Numbered from the stretch's first letter, positions 40,902 through 60,150 are shown. The stretch is 64,000 nucleotides of DNA from an uncultured Gammaproteobacteria bacterium (GCA_964345045.1 CAYFPM010000001.1:172215-236214); one strand, 5' to 3'. Translations and numbers: made by a program. Notes: generated by a model not told the origin, from the letters alone.

Positions 40902-40950
40902 AAATTGATTTAAAGATTTTTCCTTTGCCTCGTAATGACAATTTTAAAAA

Positions 40951-41895: not shown

Positions 41896-41935
41896 ATAGT
41901 TGTAATCGTAAATCTAAAGTCTAAAATTAAAAAAT

Positions 41936-43060
41936 TTAATATACCCTCCAATTTGGATCGACTTTTATGTCTTGCCAATTGGTGAATTCTTTTTTAATAG
42001 CTTTGTAATAACCGGCCACAGCAATCATAGCAGCGTTGTCCATTGAATAGTTTGTAGTTGGTAGTAAGTAGTGAGTAGGCGTTTCTAATTTTTTGATTTC
42101 AGTTTCTAAAGTTTCGCGAAGTTTGGGATTGGCGCTTACTCCACCGCCAAGCAAAATTGTTTTTGGTTTGTATTTTTTGGCTGCACCTATAGTTTTGCTA
42201 ACCAAACTATCTACAATTGCCCACTCAAAACTGGCACAAAAATCATTTAGAGTGGTTTCATGTTTATTTATGCCAAAAATTCCAGCTGCAAATTTTGCTA
42301 GAGGATTAGTATTTATAGCGGCTAGTTTGTTATCACGGAGCCAATAAAGAGCAGCAGTTTTTAAACCAGAAAAACTAAAATTAAAATTATCTTTTTTGTT
42401 CATAGCTCTGGGGAAGGCAATAGCATTTGTATTCCCATCTTTGGCAAGTTTGGAAATTTTTGGTCCACCAGGATACTCAAAACCGAGTAGCTTGCCAACT
42501 TTGTCAAAAGCTTCACCAGCAGCATCGTCTTGGGTTTTGCCAATTAGTTCAAAATTTTCTGGGCTTTTTAGATGCAAAATTTCGGTGTGCCCGCCACTTA
42601 CTACTAGAGCTAGAGCGGGGTATTCGATATCTGATTTTTGATTTTGAACAAGAGCAGAAAGTGCGTGGCCAGCAATGTGATTGGTAGCGACCAGCGGAAC
42701 ATCCCACAAGTAAGACAAAGCTTTGGCAGCTTCTACCCCAATTACTAGCCCGGTGACCAAACCAGGACCCGCCGTAACTGCAATCACATCTGGTTTAAAC
42801 TCAGATTTTTGATTTAGGATTTTAGATTTATGATTTTCTAACACGGCTTCTATTACTGGAAAAATGTTTTCGGCGTGCTGGCGGCCAGCCACTTCCGGTA
42901 CCACTCCGCCGTACTTTTTATGTACTTCTATCTGGCTAGCTGTTTTTTCGGCTATTACAAAAAATCCTTTGTCCGAGCAATCGACCAAGGCTACAGAGGT
43001 ATCGTCGCAAGATGATTCTATGGCTAAGACTTTCATAAAAACACTAAATTTTGAAATCAT
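41936..43060 (-). CDS. tsaD: tRNA N6-adenosine threonylcarbamoyltransferase TsaD (Kae1/Gcp family); the likely start is the internal MKVLAIESS
   Basis: LAIESSCDDTSVALV, two HxxH-like metal ligands (NHIAGH), ASKH fold length. Confidence 0.85.
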   Translation of the reverse strand: MISKFSVFMKVLAIESSCDDTSVALVDCSDKGFFVIAEKTASQIEVHKKYGGVVPEVAGRQHAENIFPVIEAVLENHKSKILNQKSEFKPDVIAVTAGPGLVTGLVIGVEAAKALSYLWDVPLVATNHIAGHALSALVQNQKSDIEYPALALVVSGGHTEILHLKSPENFELIGKTQDDAAGEAFDKVGKLLGFEYPGGPKISKLAKDGNTNAIAFPRAMNKKDNFNFSFSGLKTAALYWLRDNKLAAINTNPLAKFAAGIFGINKHETTLNDFCASFEWAIVDSLVSKTIGAAKKYKPKTILLGGGVSANPKLRETLETEIKKLETPTHYLLPTTNYSMDNAAMIAVAGYYKAIKKEFTNWQDIKVDPNWRVY

Positions 43061-43134
43061 TAAATCAAGCTTAGTCTAACAAAAAAGTGGCCTTGTGGCC
43101 ACCTGATTGATTGCTATTATATATAGCGAAGAAT

Positions 43135-43318
43135 TTATAGCGTGTAGCCCGTAGGGGAATCTCACGTCGCTTGCTTCGCAGCTCCTGGGGAACTTTCCAG
43201 TTCCCCAGCCCTCCATCGCAAGTAAGGGGCTTTGCCCCTTACCATCCCCCGTTCGCTTCCCTTATATGAATCAGCAAAAAACAAAAAGACCAGCTTTCAG
43301 CTGATCTTTTTGTTTTTC
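43135..43318 (+). ncRNA. candidate small structured RNA or leader (GC-rich hairpins GGGGAACTTTCCAGTTCCCC and TAAGGGGCTTTGCCCCTTAC, ending in a terminator hairpin plus T-run at 43283-43316)
   Basis: No ORF. The TTGATT...TATATA promoter-like sequence upstream (43106-43126) and the three consecutive hairpins plus intrinsic terminator were read directly. Identity unknown. Confidence 0.2.
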
Positions 43319-43727
43319 GTAGACGACGGGGGAGACAGCTCGAACAAACTAATCGAAGAAGTCATGGCGTGGTCCAGAGTCGTGGACTCCAGCGACGAGC
43401 AAAACGAGGCAGTGTAGAAGGTGCCGCGCGGTCGGAGCCTGGAGAGTGGAGGGCCAGGAGGCCGAGAGCACGGGAGTTCGGACGACTCGCCCCAAGTCCG
43501 CGGAACATCGTCCCACAACATCTGTGGCAGAAGCTGGTGATCCCGAGCCAGTTCGTCGTGAAACCGGCCCTGCGGGATCGAATCTCGCCGTCACTACCCG
43601 CCGCCCCCAAGTCTTGTGAGACGATCCACGAAAACTCTGGAGCACTGGCGCCCCCGATACCGCGCTCAACCAAGAGCCGACCCTCCTATTGCAGGCCGCC
43701 GTCTGCATCCTGTAGAATAGATGGCCT

Positions 43728-45344
43728 ATGCCTCCGACTATCATAAGACTCTCGACCTACGCTCTGGAAGTCGATATCTCATCCAAAGACCTCGTCATTC
43801 TCGGTGCGAATGGCTCAGGAAAGTCGACGCTCGGGATAGAAGTCGCACAGAGCAGCCAGGCAATTCGGATCTCGGCACGTCGCACCCTGGATCTCGCCGA
43901 CTCAATCCCGATGAACTCGCTGCACGATGCAACCAAGAGCTATGAGCAAACTAGTGCGCAGAGCCTTCGCAACCGTATAAGTCAGCAGAATGACTTCGGT
44001 CAGGCTCTTGTGTTGCTACTGGCGCACGAGACCGAACATGGGAACAGCCTTCTCGCTAGAGTCAGAGCTGCGGAAGAGACGCGCTTGACGAGACAAGAGG
44101 GCTACACGAAACTCTCGCAGGCAGTGGAGGTGTGGGAGGCACTTTTCCCCGGTCGTCGCCTGACTTTCAACCGCCATCAGCCGAGGGTAACCCAGGATGG
44201 CTCGACGGGATTTCCCGCGCAGACATACGGGCAGACGCAAATGAGCGACGGCGAGAAGCAGGCGCTCTATCTAATAGCGAAGATACTCCTTGTGTCGAGC
44301 GGCAACATAATAGTAGTAGATGAGCCGGAAACGCACTTGCATTCAGCGCTCGCCCGGGAGCTCTGGGATCGCCTTCGAGCTCTACAGCCGGAACGAAAGT
44401 TCATCTACATAACGCATGACGTCCCTTTCGCGTTGAGCAGAGCGAACGCAAAGCTCCTCTTTCTGCACTCGAGGAATAGGGCGACTGTTGTCGATGATCT
44501 GGCTGACCTGCCTGCGAGCGCCATCGAGTCGCTTGTTGGCGCTGCCACGTCTTCCGTTAAGAATAGTAAAATCGTGTTGTGCGAGGGGACCTCCTCTTCG
44601 CTCGACTACTCGATCCTCAGCGCATGGTACTCCAGTGAGGACGTAAGCGTTGTTCCTGTAGGAAGTTGCGACACCGTTCAGGCCTGCATGTTGGCACTTC
44701 CAACCTCCCAAGTGCTGGCGGGGGCGTCTTTCCTCGGGGTGGTCGATCGAGACCAACGTAGCCAGCCGGAGCTCCAGCACATCAAGAGGCAGGGTATACA
44801 CATCCTTGGGGTCTCCGAGATTGAGCACCTCCTGGTGCTTCGCGGTGTGATACGACAGATCGCTTCGGTCCAAAAGTCAGAGTCTGCTGATGCCGCAGAC
44901 AGGGCGATTGACGCAGTGCGCGCCCGCATTCGGCAGCACCATGGTAGCCGGCTCCATATTGCCGCATTCGAGTACGCCAAGGAAGCAGCCCGGTGGCAGT
45001 TCACGTTCCCCAAGGGGAGGCTGTCACCGGGGAGCACGCTCGATGAAGCAAAGCAGAGCCTGCAAGGCGGCATGGGGAACCTCCCCAGTACCTCGCAGGT
45101 CGGCAATTTCGTTGACGACGCACACTCGCAGCTGAAGGCGGTTCTCGACCGGGGGGAGCTGGAGGAGATGCTGAAGCACCTCCAGCTCAAAGGGCTCCAT
45201 GGCTTGGCTGCTTCGCCCTTGGGGCTAACCGCCGATGGATACAAGAGTGTGTTCATCGGCGTCCTTCGCGGTATGCACGGCGATGGGGCGCGCAATTCAA
45301 TGCGCCAGGTCCTAGCGGATTTCCTGCCGCCGCTAGCTCCGTAA
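43728..45344 (+). CDS. ABC-type ATPase fused to a TOPRIM/DUF4435-like domain (OLD-family / Gabija GajA / PARIS AriAB-like ATP-dependent nuclease)
   Basis: Walker A GANGSGKST, signature MSDGEKQALYL, Walker B IIVVDEPETHLH, H-loop IYITHD. C-terminal IVLCEGTSSSLDYSIL (TOPRIM Glu), VVPVGSCDTV and GVVDRDQRS (DxD). A TAGAAT -10 lies immediately upstream (leaderless-like). Confidence 0.55.
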   Translation: MPPTIIRLSTYALEVDISSKDLVILGANGSGKSTLGIEVAQSSQAIRISARRTLDLADSIPMNSLHDATKSYEQTSAQSLRNRISQQNDFGQALVLLLAHETEHGNSLLARVRAAEETRLTRQEGYTKLSQAVEVWEALFPGRRLTFNRHQPRVTQDGSTGFPAQTYGQTQMSDGEKQALYLIAKILLVSSGNIIVVDEPETHLHSALARELWDRLRALQPERKFIYITHDVPFALSRANAKLLFLHSRNRATVVDDLADLPASAIESLVGAATSSVKNSKIVLCEGTSSSLDYSILSAWYSSEDVSVVPVGSCDTVQACMLALPTSQVLAGASFLGVVDRDQRSQPELQHIKRQGIHILGVSEIEHLLVLRGVIRQIASVQKSESADAADRAIDAVRARIRQHHGSRLHIAAFEYAKEAARWQFTFPKGRLSPGSTLDEAKQSLQGGMGNLPSTSQVGNFVDDAHSQLKAVLDRGELEEMLKHLQLKGLHGLAASPLGLTADGYKSVFIGVLRGMHGDGARNSMRQVLADFLPPLAP

Positions 45345-45622
45345 ACTCAAATGAATGCAGATTCCCTGGACTGATGGGATAGTACGAGACCGGCGCATGT
45401 GCGCCGGTCTTGTGGGTGGTGGAGATGGATGGAAGGCGTCGAACATGCACGGAGCGGGCCCTTCGGATGCGACGGGGTTTGTGACTCCAGGGTGTCTTGG
45501 GATACTTCGGCAAGCGAAGGAGTACAGATGTAGTGCGGGCTCGCCGTGGTCATGAGGCCTGTGGGAGCTGCAGCAGCGTTGCGCCTCCATGAGCGGACGG
45601 CCATTGTACGGGGTGCTCTTGG

Positions 45623-46192
45623 CTAGAGTCTACGCTCAAAGGTCAATGGTCCGATCAACATATTACCAGACTCCGTTGTATCCTCTGTTACGTAGTGTCC
45701 CTCTATCGGGCCTTCTGGCGTGATGTGGATAGCCCCGATTCCACGCCAGCTGGTCGTGTCGTCGCCGGCTGTCGTACCCTTATAGATCATGTAGGCCGTC
45801 CGACCTTGCTTAACACCGCTGCCCTCGATCTGAGACGTCACCGAGGGGCCGCCGTCCAGCGGTACTGCCGTCATCGAGGCCGCGATATCAACGCGCCCAT
45901 CCGAACACTCACCAATCTTCCCTCCAGAGAATCGATACCGAAACTTTGGTGTCATCCCCTGGATGGCGAGGTCTCCGGCCTCGCCAATCACGCTGATTTC
46001 ACGCCGGTCCTTGCAGAGCTTCTTCTCTCGGTCGTAGCCCTCGCAAAACTCTAACATGAAGCTGGGGCGACCGAGACTCGCAAAAACAACACTGGCCAGG
46101 AGACTCGTGCACACTCCGAGGAAGAAGGCCAAGGCCCTGCCTGGCGGCTTGCGATCATCATGTAGTTGCATCTGTCGCTCCAGATCCCGCAT
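45623..46192 (-). CDS. exported hypothetical protein (start taken at the internal MRDLERQ... Met before the signal-like helix)
   Basis: Hydrophobic LAFFLGVCTSLLASVVFA near the N-terminus. GC3-rich. The longer ORF 45623..46393 probably includes 5' non-coding sequence. Confidence 0.35.
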   Translation of the reverse strand: MRDLERQMQLHDDRKPPGRALAFFLGVCTSLLASVVFASLGRPSFMLEFCEGYDREKKLCKDRREISVIGEAGDLAIQGMTPKFRYRFSGGKIGECSDGRVDIAASMTAVPLDGGPSVTSQIEGSGVKQGRTAYMIYKGTTAGDDTTSWRGIGAIHITPEGPIEGHYVTEDTTESGNMLIGPLTFERRL

Positions 46193-46517
46193 AGTAGCGG
46201 AGGTCGGCGGAGTCAATAATGGGGCAAACGACCCAGTCGCGGTGCTTCGGTGCGTCGAAGTCCCAGAGGGGGGAGAGGTCGCTCGAGCTTGAGCCCGGCG
46301 TGCGCTCTGAGTTCGTAGGCTGGAACACAATTGCAGACGCGGCACGAGCGTGGAGCAGCGCACCTTGCGAATGTCTGCACTCTGATGGCCCATACTATTC
46401 CTGGCAGGCGGTAGCTCCGGTGAGGCCTACCAAGCCTCTTTGATGCTGGCGAGTTCCGATAGCAGCATAGATGGCTTGCGCTCGTTGGTGCTCTCAGTGA
46501 TGTACATGAGCATGCGT

Positions 46518-46866
46518 CGGGCTCGTGTAACCGCAACGGTTCCAAGAACTCCATCGGGTCGTCGTGGAGCAAGCCCTCTTGCCGCAGCCAGCGGCAGAAC
46601 GAGACCAGCCCCCAGTAGCGGTGGTTGAAGGCAGCTCTCGAATCGCCCGACGAGTCGGTCAAAAAGCGGCTCACCATGGCCGTTGATGGAGAGCTGAGCT
46701 CTGCGGCCTCGCCGATGGCCTCGAGCGATAGAAAGGACTCGAAGTCCGCCACCACCCGAGCGTAACGTCGGGTCACGGCCGGAGCGAGCTTCCTCCCTCC
46801 TCGCAGGTAGACCTCGAAGTTGGCCACCAGGTCCCTATCCATAGAGTGCAGATCTTTGGCAAGCAC
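46518..46866 (-). pseudogene. tyrosine recombinase N-terminal (SAM-like/core-binding) domain remnant; catalytic domain absent
   Basis: LAPAVTRRYARVVADFESFL...RAAFNHRYWGLVSFCRWLRQEGLLHDDP matches the integrase N-terminal domain. The downstream continuation (to 46213) shows no R-K-H-R-H-Y catalytic signatures. Confidence 0.4.
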
Positions 46867-47202
46867 GACGCCCGGAGCTTAGGCGCCCACTGAAGTCGTC
46901 GTCAATCCAATTATGCCCGATACACCCAGATTGGGCAGAACTACCTCGACTCACAGAGTCCCTACTGTAGGATGTGATCCCCGTTCTTTCGAAATCGAAG
47001 ACAAGCGACTTCTCGGCTCGGTTCTGCCTCGTTTCCGACCATGTGGTGCATCGGGTGCACGCAAGTGTACTTGCTGGAGCGCAGCTCTACCCGCGACGTC
47101 GGGAAAGCCAACCTGCTCGATGGGACAGGTTCGGAGGAAAGCTGGCTGTCGCCTCATTCGGGGGATTGTCACACCTGCGGAGCTTCGCGCACTACGACAG
47201 TC

Positions 47203-47595
47203 GTGGAAAAGGGAAGAACTACCATCGCCCTTCTCGACGATGATGCCGCCCTGCGTCGCCCGCTCGCGAAGTTCCTGCGGAGAGAGGGCTACCGTTGCTT
47301 GGAGTTCAGCTCGGCCGAGGAGTTCCTTGAGGCGAAGCCTCTCGTCTCACTTGTCGTCTCGGACGTGGAGATGGGGGCGATGTCTGGCCTCGAGTTGCGC
47401 AAGCGGTTGGCGGGTGCCACAACGGTTGTCCTTATGTCTGGCTCGGGAGAAGTCGAAGTTGACTTGCCGAAGCCGTTCCCGATCTCGAAGCTCACGACCG
47501 TAGTGGAGGCTGCCTTGCAGAGCGCAGCCATGCGCCCGGTTGATCGCGGAGCCAGTCCGGAGCCGAGTTTGCTCTCGATCATGGCCGGTGGTTGA
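47203..47595 (+). CDS. single-domain response regulator (CheY-like receiver); the annotated ORF begins at 47041 but the receiver starts near a GTG at 47203
   Basis: IALLDDDAALRRPLAKFL...LVVSDVEMGAMSGLEL...VVLMSG are receiver-domain acidic-pocket and phospho-Asp motifs. No output domain. Confidence 0.45.
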   Translation: MEKGRTTIALLDDDAALRRPLAKFLRREGYRCLEFSSAEEFLEAKPLVSLVVSDVEMGAMSGLELRKRLAGATTVVLMSGSGEVEVDLPKPFPISKLTTVVEAALQSAAMRPVDRGASPEPSLLSIMAGG

Positions 47596-47710
47596 CCTGA
47601 CGAAGCGGCCCAGTGTTGGGCAGCGGAACTCCACCCCCGCGGAGTGGTAGTTGCGGGTCTTCAGTGCGTATCGGCGCGAGAGGTTCGCTGGTATGCAGGA
47701 GGTCCGTGAC

Positions 47711-48379
47711 CTACTTCGCGATACCAGTGCCCAAGATCTTCTCAATGGCCGCGCTTTCTAACGCTTTCAGTTCATTGATGTGCGATTCAATCGTCGGCTT
47801 GCGTGGGTGCACGACTCTCAGTCTCTCGAGTTGGACGCCAGCCACCTCGATGGTATAGCGGCGAAGAGTGCCGTTACTATAGTAGTCCGCGTCGACTGCT
47901 GTGATGACCCCAGCGATTTCCAGCCTCACTCGGACCTTTGGGACTGAGATGAGTAGCTTGCTGCACTTCTTCTGCTGTTCTATGAGTCTCTCGATCTGTT
48001 TGCTGAGTTTCTTCAGCGAGGGATGGTCTGAAGTGATCTTCCAGTAGCCCTCTGAGGCGTCGAAGCTGATTGGAGCTCCTCTGAGGTGTAAGACAGGTAT
48101 GTCGCTGTCGATGTTGATTCGCCTTCGACCTATGAGGCGGGCGCAGATGAATGTTTCGCGGGTTGCGGGGTCATACCTCCCGAGAGCTTTGAGGAACTGC
48201 TCGATCGTAGAGTGGGTTTCGTCGTGCTCCGCCGCAAAGAGCTTGCAGACTTGGCTGTCGTTTTCATTTCTGCAGACTTGGAGCCTCCGTGTTCTGCATT
48301 TCTCACGACTGTCTGCACCAGCAGCTGGTCGTGGCGTTAGAGCAACTCCAAGTAGCAGCGCTAGTACTGCCGGCCGCAC
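47711..48379 (-). CDS. exported hypothetical protein (signal peptide)
   Basis: N-terminal MRPAVLALLLGVALTPRPAAGA. GC3-rich. Confidence 0.4.
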   Translation of the reverse strand: MRPAVLALLLGVALTPRPAAGADSREKCRTRRLQVCRNENDSQVCKLFAAEHDETHSTIEQFLKALGRYDPATRETFICARLIGRRRINIDSDIPVLHLRGAPISFDASEGYWKITSDHPSLKKLSKQIERLIEQQKKCSKLLISVPKVRVRLEIAGVITAVDADYYSNGTLRRYTIEVAGVQLERLRVVHPRKPTIESHINELKALESAAIEKILGTGIAK

Positions 48380-49020
48380 TACAGAGGGCTCCCGAATAGG
48401 GTTTCGAACGCCTGGTTGGACCTGGGGGATCGCTCCAGAAGTAGCAGAGTGTTGTTTCTTGGCGTGTCAGGCCTAACTACTAGAATCGGCTCGTTGTCCT
48501 CACTCCAGACAGTCAAGGTTCGATCGTATTGCAGCCGAGCCCACCCCCGGAACGCAGTATCTACAAATACGAGCCTGCCGTCGTTCTTGAGTAGTAGATG
48601 TCCCCCGATGGGGAGGGTGATCCTGTCATTCTGTAGTAGTGAATGGAACTTGATACGAAAGACACGTCCAGGAATGACAGCATCCGGCTTGACTTCGACT
48701 CGAAGTGACGATGCTGAAATTTCTAGGCCGCGTGCCGTTCGAATGGTCTGGCCGGATGTTCCGCGGAAGGAGAATCGATTTCCGGTCCCGCGCGAACTGC
48801 GGTCAGGACGACTGCGACGTGTGAAGTAGCCAACGACCGCGTATCCCGTGGTGGCAACGTCGTACGCGGTCATAGCAATGCGGATTGGTGCGGCAAGTTT
48901 GACTGCAAAGCGTGCTGTCCGAAATAGCCAGGAGTCTTTCGCGTGTACTTGCCTGGAGACTGCGAGAACTGGTGATGCAGCGAGGGCAAGTAGTAGCAAA
49001 CGTCGGTTTATGAGGTCCAT
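48379..49020 (-). CDS. exported hypothetical protein (signal peptide), co-transcribed with the 47711..48379 gene
   Basis: N-terminal MDLINRRLLLLALAASPVLAVS. The stop overlaps the downstream start. Confidence 0.4.
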   Translation of the reverse strand: MDLINRRLLLLALAASPVLAVSRQVHAKDSWLFRTARFAVKLAAPIRIAMTAYDVATTGYAVVGYFTRRSRPDRSSRGTGNRFSFRGTSGQTIRTARGLEISASSLRVEVKPDAVIPGRVFRIKFHSLLQNDRITLPIGGHLLLKNDGRLVFVDTAFRGWARLQYDRTLTVWSEDNEPILVVRPDTPRNNTLLLLERSPRSNQAFETLFGSPL

Positions 49021-49201
49021 ATGTCTGCCGTGAGTGGGCGATCTACAGGGTTATCGCCTGGAAATTGAGAATAGCACAGCTGAGTGGCGGTCGGGATGTG
49101 GTAGCCGCGACCACCCAACGGAATCAGGATTGGCCTTAGCGAAGCGAACAGCTCTCGGAACACGAAGAAGGGAGCCACCTGGATAGGGGCTCCCTTGGAG
49201 A

Positions 49202-49867
49202 TCACTCGAGCGTGAACGGCTGTCCGCAGCTGTCGCAGCGGATGGTCGTATCTGTGAGCGTCTTTCGGCTCACCCGAATGATGTAGGGGCAGGCACAAGT
49301 CGCCTTGCGGCTGCGGGTCTTGGATTGTCCTTCGGTTGGTGACGATGGGTCCGTGGTCGGATCCGGTGACGTGGTTGGTCGGAACGACCGTCGGTGTATG
49401 AGCACCGAGTCGAGTCGAGCGATCTCCTTGGCGTAGCGGTCAGCGGTCTCGTATGGCATCCGCGTCAGGGCGAAGCCGTAGTGCTGGACCTGATTGACCA
49501 CGAGGCCGAGTTCCTCGGCCGCCGCCTTGAAGAGGCGGTTGTGGTACTGGTTCCGGCTGCAATCCCGCTTGCCAAGAGCGAAGTTCATGGCATGAGCGGC
49601 CTCGTGAACGAGGGTCTCGACCACGTCTTCGGCCCCGCGGTTCAGGTGCTCGGCCACGACCACCACTTCGTGCAGTAGCTGGTCGTCGGTTCGGCGCACC
49701 TGCCAGCGCAGGGGGGCGAAATGCCCCAGGATGCGGCTTCCGCCCGGGCCCCTGGGCGCCGGGGCGGGCAAGAGCACTACGTTCGGTACCCGAGGGTGCC
49801 GGGCTTGGATGGCGCGCCAGACGGCCTGGAGAGCCGTGATGAGCTCGACGCTCGAGGTCTCATCCAT
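49202..49867 (-). CDS. SprT-like zinc metallopeptidase with a C-terminal zinc ribbon
   Basis: HEAAH (HExxH) in the context ETLVHEAAHAMNF. C-terminal CACP...CDSCGQ. Confidence 0.4.
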   Translation of the reverse strand: MDETSSVELITALQAVWRAIQARHPRVPNVVLLPAPAPRGPGGSRILGHFAPLRWQVRRTDDQLLHEVVVVAEHLNRGAEDVVETLVHEAAHAMNFALGKRDCSRNQYHNRLFKAAAEELGLVVNQVQHYGFALTRMPYETADRYAKEIARLDSVLIHRRSFRPTTSPDPTTDPSSPTEGQSKTRSRKATCACPYIIRVSRKTLTDTTIRCDSCGQPFTLE

Positions 49868-50135
49868 GGCAGTCTCCGACCGGTTCGGCCGCGACCAGGA
49901 GCCCCGGCTGAGGGAGGTGGGCGTACTTGACCTGGTTCCGACGCAGTTGCCGGAAGCAGCGGTGCATGTGCTGGTTGATCATGTGCTCGTAGGCGCCGGC
50001 CACGATGTGCAGCCGGCCGACCTCTGAGGTCTCGAGCAGTCCAGTACGCTCGAGAGCGTTCATGATCCGAGCCCGGTCGACGACCGTGCCCGGGGCAAAC
50101 GGGTAGAGTTCCACCACGATCGTGATGTTCAGCAT
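49860..50135 (-). CDS. hypothetical protein
   Basis: 91-aa GC3-rich ORF between the primase and SprT-like genes on the same strand. Confidence 0.3.
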   Translation of the reverse strand: MLNITIVVELYPFAPGTVVDRARIMNALERTGLLETSEVGRLHIVAGAYEHMINQHMHRCFRQLRRNQVKYAHLPQPGLLVAAEPVGDCHG

Positions 50136-50182
50136 GTTGTCTCCTTGTGCTTGGGGTCGACCGTGCAGCCGACCAATGACAG

Positions 50183-51277
50183 TCAGGTTGCAGATTCGTC
50201 CTCGGACAAAGGGAAGGCGAAGTTGACCTCGGCGAGGTCAAGCTGACGCAGGCCGTTCACCAGCCAGCGCACGAGGCGCGGCGGCAGGTCGTCCGGCTCG
50301 ATATCCCTCGGGAGCCGAGCCAGTCGGGTCGTGACGCCGAGAGCGGTGAGCTTCTCGGCCGCGACTGCGGCGCCTCGTTCGCCGGCTTCGTTGCCGTCGA
50401 ACATGATGACGACGTCCCTGGCCTCGGTGAGAAGCACGGCCTGGGCGTCCGACAATTCGGCGCCCATGGCGGCAACGACGTTCTCGAGGCCGGCCTCAAG
50501 GAGCTTCAGCACAGTGAAGAAGCCCTCCACCAGGACGACGCCCTCTGTCGCCGCCGCCTCGCGGCAGCGGTGCCAGTTGTAGAGCACCAGTTCCTTGCGG
50601 AAGCCTTTGGGCAGCTTGTACTTACCGAACTGAGCCGCGTCCGAGGGACGCAGGCGGCGGCCAGCATAGGCCACGAGGCCCCCCGCCTCGTCGTGGATGG
50701 GAAAGGCTACGCAGCCGCGCATCATGCCGCGAGAGCAGTAGCCCACGCCGAAGTGGTCGAGGGTCTCTGGGCGGAGCCCGCGGTCTTCGATGAGGTGCGG
50801 GTGCTCGCGCTTCAGGTTCAGCTTGACCGAGATGACCGGGTTCTTGGCGGGCGGCTCGTCGGCTTCCTCTTCGTCCGAGGTCTCAGCCTCGTCCGGCGAG
50901 GGAGCCGGCCGCTCGGTCTGGCGTGGCCTGGCTGCGGGCCTCTGGGCTCGGCTCTTCGAGGTCGGTTTCGGAGTCGGCGTGTCCACGAAGTAGTCGCGCA
51001 AGCGCAAGGCCGCTTCCCGTATGCCGACGCCCTCCTTCCGGGCGACGAAGTCGAGCTGGTTACCCCCGCCTTGGCACTTGGAGAAGCAGTGCCAAACGTC
51101 CTTGCCGAGGTCGGCGTGGAAGGCGCGGGGGTTGTCACCACCGTGCACCGGGCAGGGGCCAACCACCTTGTGATCGTGCCGCTTGAGCCCCTCGAGCTGG
51201 TAGAACTCGAAGAGCACCATCTCGAGGGAGACCCGGTCGCGGATCTCTTTGAAGTTGATCCAGTCCTTCTTGGACAT
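50183..51277 (-). CDS. DNA primase-like protein (CHC2 zinc finger + TOPRIM)
   Basis: CPVHGGDNPRAFHADLGKDVWHCFSKCQGGGNQLDFV (zf-CHC2). C-terminal VVLVEGFFTV...VIMFDGNEAGERGA (TOPRIM Glu and DxD-like motif). Confidence 0.6.
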   Translation of the reverse strand: MSKKDWINFKEIRDRVSLEMVLFEFYQLEGLKRHDHKVVGPCPVHGGDNPRAFHADLGKDVWHCFSKCQGGGNQLDFVARKEGVGIREAALRLRDYFVDTPTPKPTSKSRAQRPAARPRQTERPAPSPDEAETSDEEEADEPPAKNPVISVKLNLKREHPHLIEDRGLRPETLDHFGVGYCSRGMMRGCVAFPIHDEAGGLVAYAGRRLRPSDAAQFGKYKLPKGFRKELVLYNWHRCREAAATEGVVLVEGFFTVLKLLEAGLENVVAAMGAELSDAQAVLLTEARDVVIMFDGNEAGERGAAVAAEKLTALGVTTRLARLPRDIEPDDLPPRLVRWLVNGLRQLDLAEVNFAFPLSEDESAT

Positions 51278-51497
51278 AGGTTGTCTCCATGGTCACCGAG
51301 AGGTAACGCAGGTTAGGTTGCCTACCGGAGTCCCGGCAGGGGGCGGCAAAGCCGTCCCCCCTGAGCACCGACACGGTCACTGGCCTGACCAAGGTCGATG
51401 CGCCGCGCCGGGGAACAGCCCGAGGCAGCTCGCAAAGAGCTGTGGACGCCCTTCGTGATCAGGGGGGATGGCCCGATCAAGTGATCGGGTTGGGGGT

Positions 51498-52847
51498 CTA
51501 AACACCGAGCTCGGGGAACAGCTCGTCTCGCCGTCGGGCGAAGCGCTCTCGCGATAGCCGGCGGATCAGGTCAGCGCGCTCGCGGCCACCAGGTGGAGGC
51601 GTTCGGGGCGGCAGCATGCGGGCCGTGAGGGGCGCGAGCTCTTGTCCCTCGGCCAGGAGGCGAACTGCGGCGTGGTGCGCCGGCAGGTCACGCAGGTGGC
51701 TGGCGGTGAGCGTCGGCTCGAAGCCCGGTCCGAGGTACTGAGCATCCTCAGCGCCGAGGCGGAAGACCAGGGACGAGCCGACGTTGCCGACGACCGCGTC
51801 CCGGATTTGGTCAGGCAGTTGGCCGAAGTACTGGTGGGCGAGAACCAGTCCGAGACCGAACTTGCGAGACTCGGACAGCATGGTGGCGATGGAGCCCGAG
51901 ACGAAGCGCTGGAACTCGTCGATGTAGACGAAGAACGGCGGCTGGGCTCGTCCTCGTGACCAGGCCGCCAGTTGGATTGACGACAACAAGAGCGCGCCGA
52001 GCAAGCGACTGGCGTCTTCGCCAATACCTCCCGTAGAGAGGTTGGCGAGGACAATGGCCTGGCGATCGATGAGGTCGGCGAAGTCCACCCGGGAGCGCAC
52101 CTGGCCGACGATGCTGCGGACGATGGGGTTCCCCACGAAGGTGCCGAGCTTGTTCAGGACGGGCGCCACAGCCTCAGCCTGGAGGCTCTTGCCGTAGCCC
52201 GGGAACTCCTCCTGCCAGAAGGCGAGGACAGCCGGGTCGGTGACACGCTCAAGGGTCTTCTCCCGCAGAGCTTCGTCGGTCAGGAAGCGGTAGAGGTAGA
52301 CCAGGCTCGCATCGGGCCCTTCGGCCACGGCCAGGATGGCCTGGCGGAGGACATGCTCGAGCCGCGGTCCCCAGCTGTCGCTCCAAAGGGAGCGGAAGGC
52401 GGACAACAACTCCGAAGCCAGCAGCGTTCGCGAGGGATGCGGACGCCGCCCGGCCCGGAAGACGTTGAAGGAAACCGGCCAGGCCTCGTCTTCGGGGGCG
52501 AACAGCAGGACATCTCCGAGTCGGTGCGAGGGCACCAGCCGGAGAACGGTCTCAACCAACTCGCCGTGCGGGTCGAGGAGCGCCAGTCCGCGGCCGGCCG
52601 CGAGATCCTGGGAAATGAGGTTAGCAAGCAAGGTTGACTTGCCTGACCCCGTCTTCCCGATAACGTGCAGGTGCCGCAGTCGGTCAGCCGGGTGTAGGCC
52701 GAAGCGTTCCCGCCGTCGGCGAAAGGCGGTCTGGCCGAGGACGTAGAGCGGTTGGCTCGCTTCGTCGAAGCTGGCCGAGGGCGGAGTGACCCGCGGCAGA
52801 TCCGGCACCTCGGGCACCGGGGACAGGCCGGGAATGGGAGCGAGCAC
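51498..52847 (-). CDS. HerA/FtsK-superfamily (DUF87-like) P-loop ATPase, putative DNA translocase of the element
   Basis: IGKTGSGKSTLL...LLDPHGEL, Walker B VYIDEFQRF, ESRKFGLGLVLAHQ (arginine-finger region conserved in HerA/FtsK-like ATPases). Confidence 0.55.
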   Translation of the reverse strand: MLAPIPGLSPVPEVPDLPRVTPPSASFDEASQPLYVLGQTAFRRRRERFGLHPADRLRHLHVIGKTGSGKSTLLANLISQDLAAGRGLALLDPHGELVETVLRLVPSHRLGDVLLFAPEDEAWPVSFNVFRAGRRPHPSRTLLASELLSAFRSLWSDSWGPRLEHVLRQAILAVAEGPDASLVYLYRFLTDEALREKTLERVTDPAVLAFWQEEFPGYGKSLQAEAVAPVLNKLGTFVGNPIVRSIVGQVRSRVDFADLIDRQAIVLANLSTGGIGEDASRLLGALLLSSIQLAAWSRGRAQPPFFVYIDEFQRFVSGSIATMLSESRKFGLGLVLAHQYFGQLPDQIRDAVVGNVGSSLVFRLGAEDAQYLGPGFEPTLTASHLRDLPAHHAAVRLLAEGQELAPLTARMLPPRTPPPGGRERADLIRRLSRERFARRRDELFPELGV

Positions 52848-52858
52848 AGGCAGTGGGG

Positions 52859-53473
52859 TTAGCTCTCCCGAGCTTGGTCAGGGGAGATGATTGAATGGAC
52901 CTCGCCTTGGCCGTCGACCCACCTCGGGTCGAGGATCATGTCCGGGGCGAGGATGGAGATCTCGAAGCCGTCCTCGTTCTTGTCCGCGTAGTGGCCGAAC
53001 CAGAAGAGGCCTCGGCCGTGGGGCAGTGCCTCTGCCAGGCCTCGGTAGCGTTCAGCTCGGCTCGGGGTGGTGGTGGCAAAGATGACTGCCCGCAGGCGCT
53101 CATGGCCGTAGGCCTCCTTGAAGAAGCCCTGAACGAAGCGGGCGAGCTGGGGCAGCCGGTCGAGTAGCTCAGACACGAGTTCGTGCGTGGTGGCCTCCCG
53201 ACGTCCGGTGAGCCGAGCCTTGGCAGCTTCGAGCTCGAGCGAATCGGTAGAGCCCCCGCAGCGGCCAAGGGCGCCGGTGACGAGCACGGTCTCGACGCCG
53301 TAGCCCGTAGCCAGCTTGCGCACGAGGCGGATGGCCTCGTCCTCTCCTCCCTGCGCCAGGCTGCCGATCCAAGCTCGTTCGAGGAGCCAGAGATCCGAGC
53401 CGTCGAGGATGGCCAGATTGAGCGCCGGGTAGCGGTAGACCGCGACCAGGAGCCGCCGTTCCCTACAGGGCAT
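52859..53473 (-). CDS. hypothetical protein (start taken at the internal MPCRERR Met)
   Basis: GC3-rich ORF. The upstream part of the longer ORF overlaps the XRE gene. Confidence 0.35.
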   Translation of the reverse strand: MPCRERRLLVAVYRYPALNLAILDGSDLWLLERAWIGSLAQGGEDEAIRLVRKLATGYGVETVLVTGALGRCGGSTDSLELEAAKARLTGRREATTHELVSELLDRLPQLARFVQGFFKEAYGHERLRAVIFATTTPSRAERYRGLAEALPHGRGLFWFGHYADKNEDGFEISILAPDMILDPRWVDGQGEVHSIISPDQARES

Positions 53474-53804
53474 GGCTCCCGCCGGTGGCGTCCTCTTGGT
53501 CATCCGGGGCCAGCCCCAGCTCGAGTCGCCGAGCTTCGACATCGGCTCGGCGCTCGTCGAGGTAGTCGGGCGAGAAGAGGTTCTCGATCGGGACCTCAAG
53601 AGCGAGAGCTAACGAGGTCAGGATCTCAATGGGACGGGGAACGTCCCGGCAGGTCTCGTACTCGTAGAGCTGGCGGACAGACAGTCCGGCCAGCTCAGCC
53701 AGGTCTTTCTGGGGGAGCCCATGCTCTCCGTACCACTGCCGTAGCCTACGGATGTGGAGTTGGAGCGGGCGAGAATCCTCGTCTCCTCCTTGGTTTGTGT
53801 TCAT
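53463..53804 (-). CDS. XRE-family helix-turn-helix transcriptional regulator
   Basis: QKDLAELAGLSVRQLYEYE is a classic Cro/C1-type HTH. First gene of the minus-strand operon, divergent from the recombinase. Confidence 0.6.
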   Translation of the reverse strand: MNTNQGGDEDSRPLQLHIRRLRQWYGEHGLPQKDLAELAGLSVRQLYEYETCRDVPRPIEILTSLALALEVPIENLFSPDYLDERRADVEARRLELGLAPDDQEDATGGSHAL

Positions 53805-54078
53805 AGTTATCCACAGCAGACCAGTCGACAGAAGTCGTCTCGTTTGCTATGGTGCGTTGTCACCTCCTTCTTTGTGAGTTATGCAGCTTGCCGCCCTCCT
53901 GGCGCTCATAGCTACACGTTGGAGGTGGCCAGCTGACAACAAACTCGGTCACTCGGCCAATCTCCCACGTGTTCGACATGCCTTTCATGATACCGCATGA
54001 CGGAACGAGCGGGAGAGCAGGAACCGGAGGGATTCCGCCGGTTCTGTGGATAGGTCGCGACTTGAGATGAACACAACA

Positions 54079-54105
54079 AAACTCCGCCCATGTAGGCGGA
54101 GTTTT
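54079..54105. terminator. Bidirectional hairpin (AAAACTCCGCC-CATGTA-GGCGGAGTTTT)
   Basis: Perfect 11-bp stem flanked by A- and T-runs. Confidence 0.5.
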
Positions 54106-54345
54106 GTTGTTGTATGCCTCCGGTTTCTGCTGTTCGCAGCTAGACCTCTGGCAGGTACGATAGTTCTCTATGAAACGAGGACATGTGCCTGACAACTTGC
54201 CTGTGGCCGAAGAGGACATCCGTCCCATCGAACGCCACGAGCATCCAATTCAAAATCGCGAGCAGACCGTGAAAGCTCTGGCTCGCGTCCTGCTGGATAC
54301 GCTCATCGAGCACTATGCCAGTGGTGGTAACGATGAAGATATTCT

Positions 54346-55995
54346 ATGACTACACATTACAACGTGGGTTCCGCCGGGCCACGGCATGGTGTCGGCTACC
54401 CGCGCGTCTCTGGGGCAGCCCAGGTTCACGGTACGTCGCTCGACATGCAGGAGCGAGAGATCGCTAGCTACTTCGAGCGAAACGGCATCGTGGTTGACCG
54501 GATGTTTCGCGAAGAGGGGCAGTCCGCCAAGACGAGAGACCGTAGAGCGATGCTCGACGCTCTCGACTACTGCCGGCGAAACCAGAACCGGATCACGGAC
54601 TTCGCGGTCTACAAGGTCGACCGCTTCGCTCGACAGGTTGAGGACCACTTCTACCTTCGCGGCGAACTCGCAAAGTACGGCATCAAACTCCACTCGGTGG
54701 CGGAGCCAATCTCCGATTCGCCGATAGGGAAGTTCACGGAGACCACCTTGGCGGCCTTCGCCGAGTTCGACAACGCGGTGCGAGCTGTCCGCTGCGTCAA
54801 CGGCATGAAGGAGCGCCTTGCTCAGGGGATATACCCCTTCAAACCACCAGTCGGCTACATCTGCGCTCGGCACCGAGCGAGCGGAGAAAAGAAGCGAACA
54901 CCAGATCTCCCAGATCCGAAGCTGTTCCCGATGATCCAGCGGGGGCTCAGGCTCTTCCTCACTGGAGCCTGTCGCGAGTCCGAGCTGGCCGAGAAGCTCA
55001 ACGTTTGGGGCTTCGGGGCAGAGCGGGGGAGGCCTGCTACGGTGAACCTCGTGGACAAGATGCTCGGCCAGTATCTCCTTTTCTACGCTGGAGTATTGGT
55101 GAACCCTTGGACAGGCGAGGAGATTCCTGGCCAGCACGAGCCGATGATTACCCGGCAGGATGCCGATGTGATCCGAGCGATACGAAGCGGCGTGGTTCAA
55201 CGCCCCAAGAAAGAACGTTTCAGCAGCGAGTTCCCGCTCCGTGGACTCGTGCGATGCGAGTCGTGTCGTGGCCTGCTCACTGCGAGCTACTCACGCGGGA
55301 AGCGGGGGACCCGCTATCCCTACTACCACTGTCAACGATCAGGATGCTCCAGTCGGACTCGACGAGATGACCTGCACGAGAGCTTCACCGGGCTTCTTGC
55401 ATGCCTCACCCCCGACCCGGCCTTCCTCGAAGAGCTCTTCGCCGAGGCAGATGCTCAATGGGCGCACGAAAAAGCCGCCCTTGAGGGGCGACGAGATCAC
55501 CTTCGTCGACGTATTGCCGAGCTGGAGCACCGACGCGAACGGGTCTTCGAACTCTACGAGGGCGGGGCGTACGACAAAGCAGTGTTCCAGGAGCGCAAGC
55601 AGACACTCGAGTCCGAGATCGCCGTTCTGCGGCTTCAGTCCCGGCCGACCGAGGAAGATGTGGCCGAGAAGATGGACATCTCAACGACCGCCGGGAAAGT
55701 TATCGAACTCGTCAGGAACCTCCCGAATGCCTGGAGGAAACTCCCAGTTCAGCGCTTCCGAGAGATCGCCAGACTGGCCTTTCCGGAACCTGTGCTCTAC
55801 TCCCGAAATCGGGGTTATCGAACACCTGTTCTGTCGCTAATTTATGCGGAAATACAAGGCGCTGAGCGCCGCAGTTCTCCAGTGGTAGACCACAGCACTG
55901 ACCATTGGAACCTTTTCATTGAAGAAATAAGGCAATGGAGCCTTTTGATTCCTTCTGTATTCAGAGAATGTGATCTTTCTTGTGAGCAATTATAG
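54346..55995 (+). CDS. large serine recombinase (resolvase-domain integrase)
   Basis: N-terminal resolvase catalytic domain (YPRVSGAAQ...SLDMQ), recombinase domain, CESCRGLL...YYHCQRSGC zinc ribbon, coiled-coil. The last ~35 codons are AT-rich and probably flanking DNA. Confidence 0.8.
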   Translation: MTTHYNVGSAGPRHGVGYPRVSGAAQVHGTSLDMQEREIASYFERNGIVVDRMFREEGQSAKTRDRRAMLDALDYCRRNQNRITDFAVYKVDRFARQVEDHFYLRGELAKYGIKLHSVAEPISDSPIGKFTETTLAAFAEFDNAVRAVRCVNGMKERLAQGIYPFKPPVGYICARHRASGEKKRTPDLPDPKLFPMIQRGLRLFLTGACRESELAEKLNVWGFGAERGRPATVNLVDKMLGQYLLFYAGVLVNPWTGEEIPGQHEPMITRQDADVIRAIRSGVVQRPKKERFSSEFPLRGLVRCESCRGLLTASYSRGKRGTRYPYYHCQRSGCSSRTRRDDLHESFTGLLACLTPDPAFLEELFAEADAQWAHEKAALEGRRDHLRRRIAELEHRRERVFELYEGGAYDKAVFQERKQTLESEIAVLRLQSRPTEEDVAEKMDISTTAGKVIELVRNLPNAWRKLPVQRFREIARLAFPEPVLYSRNRGYRTPVLSLIYAEIQGAERRSSPVVDHSTDHWNLFIEEIRQWSLLIPSVFRECDLSCEQL

Positions 55996-56045
55996 GTTAT
56001 TTTGGTGAAAATGTCAATGTTTTGTAATGGTTAATACAAATATAA

Positions 56046-56072
56046 AAGCCTTTCCCAAATGGAGAGGCTTTT
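56046..56072 (-). terminator. Hairpin terminator downstream of the 1300-aa gene (AAAAGCCTTTCC-CAAAT-GGAGAGGCTTTT)
   Basis: Read directly; one mismatch in the stem. Confidence 0.45.
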
Positions 56073-56097
56073 ATAAGAACTTTTTGACTTAGGTAGT

Positions 56098-60000: not shown

Positions 60001-60150
60001 ACAATTTATGTTAGGTAAATAAAAAACACCTCACAATGAGGTGCTGATAACAACATAAAAAACAACAAAACGTTTTGCTGATGTTTTTGCTGTTTTTAAG
60101 TTTTTTTGACTAAACCAAAAAAATTGGTCTGAGTTTTGTAGTATTGGCAT

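Follow-up and report, generated by a model that had tools for sequence, protein, structure and literature searches.

We analysed a 64,000-nucleotide stretch of DNA (the window) from the AT-rich chromosome of an uncultured, ultra-small bacterium, a member of Ca. Magasanikbacteria (CPR/Patescibacteria). An earlier reading, made from the sequence only, had described an integrative element here, with GC content rising at about 43320 and falling at about 55900. The step is real, and its breakpoints lie within about 10 bp of those positions. The block, hereafter E1, spans 12,566 bp (43325-55890, ~12.6 kb) and has a GC content of 0.613, versus 0.395 to its left (1-43137) and 0.400 to its right (55891-64000); inside it, the cargo is at 0.584 and the backbone at 0.639. 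Identical copies of the hexamer GTAGAC lie at the two edges, the sole 6-mer common to both 35-nt breakpoint windows. Nothing else is shared by the junctions, and a scan for dyad symmetry gave a weak signal. The edge hexamers, together with a split recombinase gene and its displaced tail, bear out the description as an integrative element. Gene calls were checked against Pfam, PADLOC and PHROGs, and the features are as follows.

43144-43161, minus strand: exact 18-nt copy of the 3' end of tRNA-Glu(ttc), beside the tsaD promoter
43162-43317: flank X, left of the left junction (J1), comprising a GC-rich hairpin segment (43162-43276, GC 0.565) and then a palindrome (43277-43317, 19-bp arms)
43319-43324, plus strand: GTAGAC core of J1 (attL), tttttcGTAGACgacggg
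43319-43417, plus strand: displaced native C-terminal tail of the E1 recombinase, VDDGGDSSNKLIEEVMAWSRVVDSSDEQNEAV and stop, GC-rich and in frame with the core, located with a tail-motif regular expression
43728-45344, plus strand: fused PARIS-type defence protein (AriA ATPase plus AriB/DUF4435 Toprim; Pfam AAA_21 and DUF4435, PADLOC AriAB), cargo
46213-46866, minus strand: ORF weakly resembling the N-terminal SAM-like domain of tyrosine integrases (Phage_int_SAM_1, sub-threshold), status uncertain
47041-47595, plus strand: stand-alone receiver-domain protein (Response_reg, 3.2e-09), cargo
47711-49020, minus strand: two cargo ORFs of 222 and 213 aa with hydrophobic N-termini, no family match
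49202-49867, minus strand: SprT-like metallopeptidase, backbone, 58% identical to its counterpart in the related locus L145
50183-51277, minus strand: DnaG-type primase (CHC2 zinc finger plus Toprim), backbone, 57% identical to that of L145
51351-51472: 18-nt inverted repeat pair between the primase and T4CP-like genes, candidate oriT or origin
51498-52847, minus strand: T4CP-like (TrwB/DUF87) P-loop ATPase, backbone marker
52859-53599, minus strand: Replic_Relax-family remnant, homology limited to the C-terminal ~120 aa
53463-53804, minus strand: XRE/HTH_3 regulator, divergent from the recombinase gene
54170-54349, plus strand: 59-aa ORF overlapping the recombinase start codon (ATGA), possible accessory or directionality factor
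54346-55890, plus strand: body of the E1 large serine recombinase (LSR1), residues 1-515, core included
55885-55890, plus strand: GTAGAC core of the right junction (J2), ccagtgGTAGACcacagc
55891-55995, plus strand: low-GC tail (HSTDHWNLFIEEIRQWSLL... to the stop), the displaced native tail of the recombinase of the neighbouring element E0, now the 3' end of the LSR1 ORF
55891-64000: leftmost ~8 kb of E0, an inovirus-like prophage with low GC and a length of ~14.2 kb

Profile searches confirmed the XRE repressor, DUF87-like ATPase, CHC2-Toprim primase, SprT-like protein and receiver domain of the sequence-only reading. The nuclease that it had called OLD/PARIS-like proved to be a fused AriAB (PADLOC PDLC02982, E = 1.6e-66, profile positions 42-552 of 570), and by its domains, an ABC-type ATPase joined to a DUF4435/Toprim part, it is a predicted PARIS (AriA/AriB) system. 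Two other assignments held in part: the supposed tyrosine-integrase remnant is merely a sub-threshold Phage_int_SAM_1 match (E = 0.012, 16.4 bits, cut-off 22.3), and the two proteins described as carrying signal peptides do have hydrophobic N-termini but matched no family. The T4CP-like ATPase scored above the TrwB_AAD_bind cut-off (30.5 versus 20.5 bits) and shows no obvious N-terminal membrane segment. E1 has its own integrase and defined att junctions, as integrative mobilizable elements (IMEs) do; on the relaxase/oriT side it carries this ATPase, the C-terminal Replic_Relax remnant and the candidate-oriT inverted repeat at 51351-51472. Mating-pore genes are absent from E1, and a canonical MOB relaxase is not among its annotated genes. 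Judged by gene content, E1 appears to be of a mobilizable, non-viral type and partly decayed. Since its relaxase-like gene is truncated and no canonical MOB relaxase is annotated, mobilisation of E1 is conjecture. PHROGs families do match its integrase, repressor, primase, SprT-like protein and ATPase, as they might if E1 were a prophage and not a plasmid-like or mobilizable element. However, genes for capsid, portal, tail, lysis or inovirus morphogenesis are absent from E1 and its syntenic relatives, and a terminase-like match covers only the P-loop region (residues 52-97, E = 5.6e-08); we regard a prophage as extremely unlikely.

The gene repertoire had also been called actinobacterial in style, which the relatives of E1 contradict. 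Homology searches with the ATPase returned uncultured nearest relatives, the named ones mostly Patescibacteria; the named members of the recombinase clade are Patescibacteria, Smithella and Acidobacteria, with no actinomycetes among them. More than 100 uncultured homologues match the backbone proteins at 56-66% identity, again mostly Patescibacteria where named; the best match among plasmids of cultured organisms reached 37%. Syntenic GC-rich islands lie in Patescibacteria contigs of 963 kb and 241 kb, between flanks of 0.40-0.46 GC. The closest relatives of E1 are equally GC-rich, and their host, where named or where flanks are visible, is a lower-GC Patescibacteria genome. A recent cross-phylum import of an AICE-like element of actinobacterial type would fit the high GC content (61%), a gene set that superficially resembles an AICE (integrase, repressor, replication gene and one DNA-translocase-like ATPase), the distant T4CP homologues on Streptomyces, Rhodococcus and Embleya plasmids (29-33% identity), and a backbone relative, L150, that lies in uniformly GC-rich (~0.6) DNA of unknown host. 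It is nevertheless very unlikely given the nearest homologues, the syntenic islands and the makeup of the recombinase clade; moreover, the FtsK_SpoIIIE match is sub-threshold (E = 0.0015, 18.5 bits versus a cut-off of 24) and the primase is of DnaG type.

LSR1 has the parts of a large serine recombinase: a resolvase domain with the catalytic serine (Pfam Resolvase, 4e-24) and a zinc ribbon (Zn_ribbon_recom, 1.8e-05) with an embedded coiled-coil. PF07508 was not detected in LSR1 itself and was found in its homologues. We aligned LSR1 with relatives in sets of 16 and 51 sequences; R20 and S22 are invariant in the smaller set and conserved in at least 90% of the larger, and among the zinc-ribbon cysteines C304, C307 and C334 are invariant, with C329 conserved in at least 90% of sequences. 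The AF2 model (pLDDT 87.7) predicts long helices at 358-432, a linker at 510-518 with pLDDT below 50, and a terminal helix at 521-542. Foldseek matched the model over its full length to 9dxh (1.3e-15), 9iu2, 9tep and 4kis, the full-length fold matches being the SPbeta, Bxb1, PhiC31 and A118 integrases. Like phiC31, Bxb1, A118 and SPbeta SprA, to which its identity is at most 26%, LSR1 combines an N-terminal resolvase domain bearing a catalytic serine with a four-cysteine zinc ribbon and a long coiled-coil. The elements that carry those integrases also resemble E1, with the integrase gene at the element's end and few bases common to the junctions, as expected for a short staggered crossover.

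The present LSR1 ORF (54346-55995) runs for about 35 codons into AT-rich DNA and encodes a chimeric protein of 549 aa. The sequence-only reading had taken this run-on for an att junction, which it is; however, the DNA beyond the junction is no ordinary host flank, since it is the coding tail of the recombinase of E0. The gene is cut at codon ~514, and the 30 GC-rich codons that natively end it are found at the other edge of E1, on the left. Across the whole window in six frames, the family tail motif matched only there and at 55906, and when the two parts are rejoined, the resulting native form (544 aa) can be aligned with the tail of the family. LSR1 was split by strand exchange within GTAG(AC), leaving codons 1-515 at the right end facing outward and the 30-codon tail at the left end, and the displaced tail of E0 has completed the ORF. 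The displaced native tail, the tandem prophage and a tRNA-Glu target 14 kb to the right had all been missed, so that the earlier account of E1 was incomplete.

A composite or contaminated assembly had also been raised. An artefact of assembly or binning, with a foreign GC-rich contig joined to a CPR contig, could account for the extreme GC step, and one assembly (ERZ930070) does break within the block at window 48818. However, both junctions are reproduced by different assemblers and runs, recurring in three assemblies of two sequencing runs: J1 is identical in a Logan contig (0 mismatches over 5,738 nt) and J2 in MEGAHIT contigs of two runs. Analogous islands also occur in independent MAGs. 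The junctions follow the logic of site-specific recombination base for base: they have a core in common, the recombinase gene is split with its tail displaced yet in frame, and a relative has the site empty. The last of these came from the search for an uninterrupted site that had been proposed: in the related genome L020, homology to the right flank (87% over 143 nt) begins exactly at GTAGAC, and L015 is similar. As far as sequence allows, an artefact is excluded, and we give it a negligible probability. Neither an LSR1 copy that retains its native tail nor a variant of this same strain lacking E1 was found in the collections.

We conclude that E1 is very probably a GC-rich integrative element, inserted by LSR1 through an attP inside the 3' end of the LSR1 gene and standing in tandem with E0. 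The attP (ccagtgGTAGACgacggg-type) would lie within the codons for the flexible linker (residues ~510-518) that precedes the conserved C-terminal helix, and LSR1 would have recombined it with the tRNA-Glu 3' end or with a site made of GTAGAC and the E0 tail. Unlike phiC31-type integrases, LSR1 carries attP inside its own coding sequence, so that integration swaps its last ~30 residues, and its relatives target the 3' ends of tRNA genes. The integrase genes of myxophage Mx8 (IntP/IntX) and of fusellovirus SSV-type elements are likewise reported to extend across attP, with the protein altered (Mx8) or split (SSV) and with tRNA targets (PMC4383910). LSR1 shares with them an attP within the integrase gene, a protein changed at integration and tRNA targets. 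They are tyrosine recombinases with long identity blocks, whereas LSR1 is a serine recombinase with 4-6 bp of identity and is predicted from the AF2 model to exchange only a C-terminal helix after a disordered linker. The likeness is an architectural analogy and not family membership; the chemistry differs. By analogy with IntP/IntX, swapping the helix at integration may change recombinase activity and so provide a built-in switch between integrated and excised states. Elements of the E1 type might excise, replicate by means of their primase and Replic_Relax proteins, and be mobilised by the T4CP-like ATPase via the type IV secretion system encoded in CPR chromosomes; the present copy would have lost part of its replication/mobilisation module.

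E1 stands head-to-tail with E0, a prophage of the same design. Inside the window E0 encodes a 1300-aa GNAT protein, LOOT RNA, a LexA/CI-like repressor and SoFic; right of it follow Zot/pI, a rolling-circle Rep, its recombinase LSR0 and then tRNA-Glu. This second LSR with its antisense tRNA had been predicted and was found 14 kb to the right. The nearest match for E0 is the CPR inovirus-like prophages (Roux et al. 2019, PMC6813254), with which it shares a Zot/pI-like morphogenesis ATPase, rolling-circle Rep, repressor, serine recombinase and tRNA integration; it differs in its large cargo (the GNAT protein, SoFic and LOOT RNA) and in a recombinase gene split by its own attP. The LSR0 ORF reads into the antisense strand of the intact tRNA-Glu (window-equivalent 70110-70184, 14 kb right of E1). 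The 3' end of this tRNA, ...CTAC, matches the core when reverse-complemented. The 18-nt tRNA-Glu fragment at 43144-43161 forms the outer direct repeat for the ~27-kb composite insert as a whole, and L015 has the same layout. This fragment and the hairpin segment left of J1 do not fit a simple GTAG crossover.

Recombination of attP with attL or attR is not a reaction of canonical LSRs, and therefore either order of arrival needs a tolerant half-site. E1 probably entered the tRNA-Glu 3' end first, with E0 arriving later between E1 and the tRNA; this order is favoured because LSR0 then keeps the conserved tRNA half-site. Excision of E0 would then yield the junction ccagtgGTAGCCcgtagg (attR1) alongside circular E0. 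The opposite order, with the same element and mechanism, is possible though rather unlikely: E0 would have been resident at tRNA-Glu, and E1 would have entered its left junction, attL0 (flank X, GTAGAC and the E0 tail), taking as its attB the stretch that encodes the recombinase tail of a related element. The sequences of all three junctions fit this order equally well, the GTAGAC identity between the E1 attP and attL0 (6 bp) exceeds the GTAG shared with the tRNA, and the relatives L020 and L015 have E1-free left ends of E0 type, making E0-type elements the more widespread residents here. However, integrated relatives in the LSR1 clade read into tRNAs and not into recombinase tails, LSR1 would have lost the conserved tRNA half-site, and E1 appears more decayed than E0 (truncated Replic_Relax, missing genes).

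Patescibacteria carry 5,713 T4CP homologues across 2,918 genomes, most of them located far from virB4, and relaxases are few (PMC12102498). Our results set many of these thousands of orphan genes in the concrete context of a mobile element. Like IMEs and these orphan T4CPs, E1 combines an integrase, a regulator, a replication/relaxase-like gene and a T4CP-like ATPase without mating-pore genes; unlike them, its family stands 15-25 GC points above its CPR hosts and has no canonical MOB relaxase annotated, the Replic_Relax of E1 being truncated. Why the family should differ so much from its hosts in composition is a puzzle, one with a bearing on how genes pass between episymbionts and other bacteria. 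One speculative reading, which we hold to be improbable as a whole, is that E1 belongs to a large, persistently GC-rich mobilizable family, the source of many orphan Patescibacteria T4CP genes, that keeps its foreign composition by shuttling, via the type IV secretion system of CPR bacteria, from AT-rich episymbionts to their GC-rich bacterial hosts and back; the helix exchange would be its direction switch, and with stacking at the same tRNA the older recombinase would gain a fresh tail that works. If the shuttling were true, GC-rich islands would mark who lives on whom.

By the textbook rule, tyrosine integrases target tRNA genes, a use that is not known for serine integrases (PMC4383910, PMC7192596); our literature search found no description of serine integrases with an attP in the gene or an ORF ending in antisense tRNA. 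The LSR0 and LSR1 clades, with only 28% identity between them, nevertheless share one design, an attP in the linker before the C-terminal helix and a crossover exactly at the 3' terminus of a tRNA gene. Comparison of homologues indicates that this placement of an LSR attachment site inside its own gene is common at tRNA genes in CPR bacteria, with dozens to hundreds of related LSRs ending in antisense-tRNA sequence. Finding a recombinase ORF that runs into an antisense tRNA is thus a rule for mapping mobile elements exactly in CPR genomes, and such natural LSR/att pairs with predictable attP are of interest for genome engineering. An integrase ORF spanning its crossover, the architecture of the Mx8/SSV type, was found in this window, in L055, which is the second example of a split LSR gene, and in ten loci where the LSR ORF overlaps an antisense tRNA by 10-117 nt. 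Tails resembling tRNA occur in 101 of 120 LSR0 homologues and 44 of 119 LSR1 homologues, about 145 of the 239 sampled overall.

The 1-kb GC profile of the window stays at 0.27-0.51 except between 43 and 56 kb, where it reaches 0.54-0.67, and 100-nt windows place the two steps at ~43.32 kb and ~55.90 kb. Exact values are 0.395 for positions 1-43137, 0.613 for 43325-55890 (the GC-rich element E1) and 0.400 for 55891-64000. By these profiles the block limits proposed in the sequence-only reading were correct to within about 10 bp, and most of its gene calls stand after Pfam, PADLOC and PHROGs analysis, as listed here. The tyrosine-integrase remnant that it also named is a sub-threshold match only (E = 0.012), and its two signal-peptide proteins are secreted-looking ORFs that match no family. 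No tRNA gene was found inside the window, and the cargo ORFs of E1 had no homologues among the loci fetched for comparison.

Genes of E1 identified by Pfam, PADLOC and PHROGs
43728-45344, fused PARIS AriAB
47041-47595, receiver domain
49202-49867, SprT-like protein
50183-51277, CHC2+Toprim primase
51498-52847, TrwB/DUF87-type ATPase (T4CP-like)
53463-53804, XRE regulator
54346-55995, large serine recombinase LSR1

Genes on the left flank of the block are tsaD and prs. Since the closest relatives of TsaD (53-61% identity) belong to MAGs of Ca. Magasanikbacteria or Patescibacteria, the background genome is that of a CPR bacterium. A chimeric or composite assembly had been raised as an alternative source of the GC shift. 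The same DNA was, however, found in three assemblies: a Logan contig from run ERR2281803 covers window 40832-46569, left junction included, with 0 mismatches; a MEGAHIT contig from the same run extends from window 44346 across the right junction and has 4 mismatches in 19.6 kb; and a MEGAHIT contig from run ERR2281802 also spans the right junction, with 0 mismatches. Two assemblers and two samples would all have had to yield one identical chimera, and the junctions carry an exact recombination signature, which argues against this alternative. One of the two MEGAHIT assemblies breaks within E1 (ERZ930070 k127_30324 starts at window 48818, inside the gene of a 213-aa secreted protein), possibly because the cargo half of E1 varies within the population. 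An E1-free variant of this strain was sought via TsaD, a 1300-aa protein and an 86-aa protein of the neighbouring element E0; none was found, and all contigs reaching the block carry E1.

Alignment of LSR1 with 15 homologues (40-44% identity) revealed that the family is conserved up to the C-terminus, where it carries the motif ...S-x-V-V/D-(5-6 residues)-W-N-Q-I-I-x-E-L-R-x-W.... The AT-rich tail of LSR1 retains this motif (HWNLFIEEIRQWSLL). Three homologues depart just past S-x-V-V, and their sequence then resembles a reverse-complemented tRNA; in locus L054 the recombinase ORF shares 35 nt with a complete tRNA-Met in antisense. These tRNA-like tails suggested that attP lies inside the gene, so that the native LSR1 tail was predicted at the opposite end of the block. 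It was found at that left edge (43319-43417, + strand), GC-rich and in frame with the core, as VDDGGDSSNKLIEEVMAWSRVVDSSDEQNEAV followed by a stop. A regular expression for the tail motif, run in six frames over the 64-kb window, matched only two places, both of them block edges. The left junction J1 reads tttttcGTAGACgacggg (GTAGAC core 43319-43324) and the right junction J2 reads ccagtgGTAGACcacagc (core 55885-55890), GTAGAC being the sole hexamer common to both breakpoint windows. Together, the two cores and the displaced native tail give an element of 12,566 bp and a reconstructed pre-integration recombinase of 544 aa; the present LSR1 has 549 aa. In the AlphaFold model (pLDDT 87.7) the crossover-encoded residues 510-518 form a low-confidence linker and residues 521-542 the C-terminal helix, and the model matches full-length serine integrases (SPbeta 9dxh, 1.3e-15; Bxb1, PhiC31 and A118). 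LSR1 with its native tail is absent from the protein collection, where its cluster has one member and the next match is 44-45% identical. Read from the junctions, insertion of E1 was a site-specific, LSR-type crossover within GTAG(AC) that split the recombinase gene at a linker and made LSR1 chimeric. The earlier view of an integrative element with an att junction inside its recombinase ORF was therefore right at its core.

Junctions reconstructed in silico (1, E1; 0, E0)
attP1, ...ccagtgGTAGACgacggg...
attP0, ...cccttttgGTAGACcacagc...
attR1, ...ccagtgGTAGCCcgtagg...
attL0/attB1, ...tttttcGTAGACcacagc...
ancestral attB, ...tttttcGTAGCCcgtagg...

Should the AT-rich tail itself have been displaced from a recombinase, another element of the same kind would be expected, with its start at J2 and, at its far end, a recombinase whose ORF runs into the target. 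Such an element, E0, was indeed present along the 134-kb contig (locus L058); it measures ~14.2 kb between J2 and J3 with a GC content of 0.40. Its recombinase LSR0 (511 aa, window-equivalent 68615-70150) is 28% identical to LSR1 in an end-to-end alignment as far as ...KSLLV, and its ORF shares 41 nt with a complete tRNA-Glu(ttc) in antisense; this junction, J3, reads cccttttgGTAGCCcgtagg. The next chromosomal genes past the tRNA are rplJ and rplL. Native tails are rare in the LSR0 clade; where present (e.g. P0336, ...VNYCLTNWNSLIDEIRRWHH), they match the tail in the window, and 101/120 LSR0 homologues end in antisense tRNA of the V-x-PRGIEPLLPG type. E0 encodes a 1300-aa GNAT protein, LOOT RNA, a LexA/CI-like repressor, SoFic, a Zot/pI-like ATPase, an ArdC-N fragment, a rolling-circle Rep and LSR0. 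It is an inovirus-like prophage, a type known from CPR bacteria (PMC6813254).

Several minor features accompany E0. The LOOT RNA (Rfam RF03000, 78 bits; 60227-60355, minus strand) precedes the gene of the 1300-aa GNAT-domain protein by 227 nt, so that the motif is here carried on a mobile element. The Fic-domain protein (62054-63004) matches the SoFic defence family (PADLOC, 4.5e-46), and Fic genes adjoin the tail junction in L015 and L020 too. Directly upstream of the target tRNA is a small GIY-YIG homing-endonuclease-like gene (L058 16991-17342, window-equivalent ~70163-70514) flanked by a 30-nt repeat of the 5' part of tRNA-Glu; L054 has a GIY-YIG gene (6996-7539) between two tRNA-Met genes. 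The GIY-YIG gene looks like a separate tRNA-associated mobile cassette.

A search for the empty site in related genomes, as suggested in the sequence-only reading, was productive, since two MAG loci hold the tail region without E1. In L020, homology to the right flank of the window (87% over 143 nt) has its exact start at GTAGAC, and the sequence before it is a long, unrelated palindrome; L015 carries ...ctaccgtGTAGACcactccactgaccattgg... at the tail region. On their left, E0-type elements are thus bounded by GTAGAC plus tail, and this boundary is precisely where E1 is located. By this comparison of sequences, E1 and E0 are in tandem, not nested. A nested arrangement, in which the left end of E0 would be an 18-nt tRNA fragment farther left, was rejected on the exact start of homology in L020 and on the match of native LSR0-clade tails (P0336) to the AT-rich tail at J2. 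In L007, tRNA-Glu lies directly upstream of tsaD, which makes the whole ~27 kb an insertion into an ancestral tRNA-Glu/tsaD neighbourhood, as a tandem array at tRNA-Glu. All three junctions fit crossovers inside GTAG, the reverse complement of the tRNA terminal ...CTAC. E1 probably entered the tRNA first and E0 then entered the E1/tRNA junction; the reverse order, with E0 first and E1 then inserting into the left junction of E0, is possible. We favor E1 first because integrated members of both clades read into tRNAs, which points to the tRNA half-site as the conserved determinant and to the other half-site as variable. A second reason is that E1 looks older: compared with its syntenic relatives, it keeps only the C-terminal ~120 residues of Replic_Relax and lacks two small genes.

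Between the tsaD promoter and J1, the 3' end of tRNA-Glu is repeated exactly over 18 nt (43144-43161). To its right come a GC-rich hairpin segment of 115 nt and then a palindrome, reaching 43317, whose arms measure 19 bp. L015 (1068-1180) has the same layout. This double-hairpin segment has an RNA fold z-score of -7.95, and no known RNA was found at the left junction in Rfam searches (gathering thresholds over the whole window, permissive ones on 43040-43340). Since a GTAG crossover duplicates nothing, this arrangement would be either a structured RNA downstream of the tRNA or the trace of an earlier event that used an 18-bp identity block.

The split-gene design is not confined to E1. In L055 a second split gene was found, with a solo tail (HG, then VDFVRFSWNQVLEELRLW...) 6.6 kb upstream of its recombinase; the common core is GGTGG and the reconstruction reads SQVVDFVRFSWNQ. 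This related ~8-kb element (L055 ~3000-11160) carries a diversity-generating retroelement (bAvd + reverse transcriptase) as cargo. An attP with a tRNA mimic extending to the T-loop (P0108 vs P0087) was considered and set aside; in E1, E0 and L055 the divergence begins at the V-V/D codons. Among LSR1 homologues, tRNA-like tails end 44/119 and native tails 51/119. A metagenome scan with T4CP returned distant relatives only (31-44%) owing to pattern bias and was used for examples of tRNA-adjacent recombinases; no further solo tail in its loci was convincing. Recombinase ORFs overlap antisense tRNAs by 10-117 nt in ten loci (Glu x2, Met x2, Ser, Pro, Leu, Tyr, Val, Thr). In published accounts, tyrosine integrases alone "are known to target tDNAs" (PMC4383910), and of t(m)RNA genes as targets of serine integrases (14/297 cases) one paper says that this "has not been reported previously" (PMC7192596). 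Mx8 and SSV have tyrosine integrases whose genes run through attP (PMC4383910), whereas in E1 it is a serine integrase gene that does so, and our literature search returned no account of such a layout among serine integrases or CPR bacteria. The main interest is architectural: a serine integrase gene spanning attP, tRNA targeting, element stacking and a GC-rich family in CPR genomes.

The T4CP-like ATPase has >1,600 homologues, and the top 120 are 56-66% identical. The few named ones among these are Patescibacteria (one labelled Bacilli), and all 120 have a GC-rich amino-acid composition, unlike the LSR0 clade. On plasmids of cultured organisms the highest identity is 37%, with values of 29-33% for those of actinomycetes. 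Syntenic relatives share the order XRE, Replic_Relax, T4CP, primase, SprT and have a GC content of 0.56-0.70. In AT-richer surroundings lie L145-147 (flank 0.47 GC), where a recombinase of another clade reads through an antisense tRNA-Tyr; L148/149, on a 963-kb Patescibacteria contig (flank 0.44), where the recombinase abuts tRNA-Val; and L151, on a 241-kb Patescibacteria contig (JGI 3300029288; flanks 0.40-0.46, island 0.51-0.64). An exception is L150, a relative in uniformly ~0.6 GC DNA. These homologues and relatives place E1 in a GC-rich element family recurring in AT-richer CPR genomes, not among actinomycete AICEs, and the actinobacterial-style origin first proposed was wrong. A 2025 survey listed 5,713 T4CP homologues in Patescibacteria, most of them lying away from virB4, and few relaxases (PMC12102498). 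Elements of the E1 type supply a context for at least part of these orphan genes. The L151 island (~7000-17500) has XRE, T4CP, primase and RadC, with neither recombinase nor tRNA nearby; it is apparently a stranded relic, and such islands apparently outlast loss of the integrase.

In a working model of the E1 life cycle, XRE would control the divergent recombinase operon, in which a 59-aa ORF coupled to LSR1 may encode an accessory factor. Tail exchange would modulate recombinase activity, by analogy with IntP/IntX of Mx8. The excised circle would be replicated or processed by the primase and Replic_Relax proteins and linked by the T4CP-like ATPase to a host type IV system, with PARIS as putative defence cargo. 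In the present copy the right junction holds the E0 arm in place of the tRNA and the relaxase-like gene is truncated; precise LSR1-driven excision may be compromised.

Other features of the window were recorded. The primase and T4CP genes are separated by a region with a pair of 18-nt inverted repeats (51351-51472), a candidate oriT or origin, and a perfect 16-bp hairpin (54073-54110) separates the XRE gene from the recombinase operon. Just past the recombinase stop, a perfect sigma-70 consensus (TTGACA-17-TATAAT, 12/12; 55989-56017, minus strand) points leftward, in antisense through the last part of the recombinase gene and over the att core. The 0.39-GC chromosome also contains two other small patches of high GC, at ~3050-4100 (peak 0.63) and ~18900-20700 (peak 0.58); their ORFs had no homologue among the fetched loci, and they may be remnants of other GC-rich mobile DNA.
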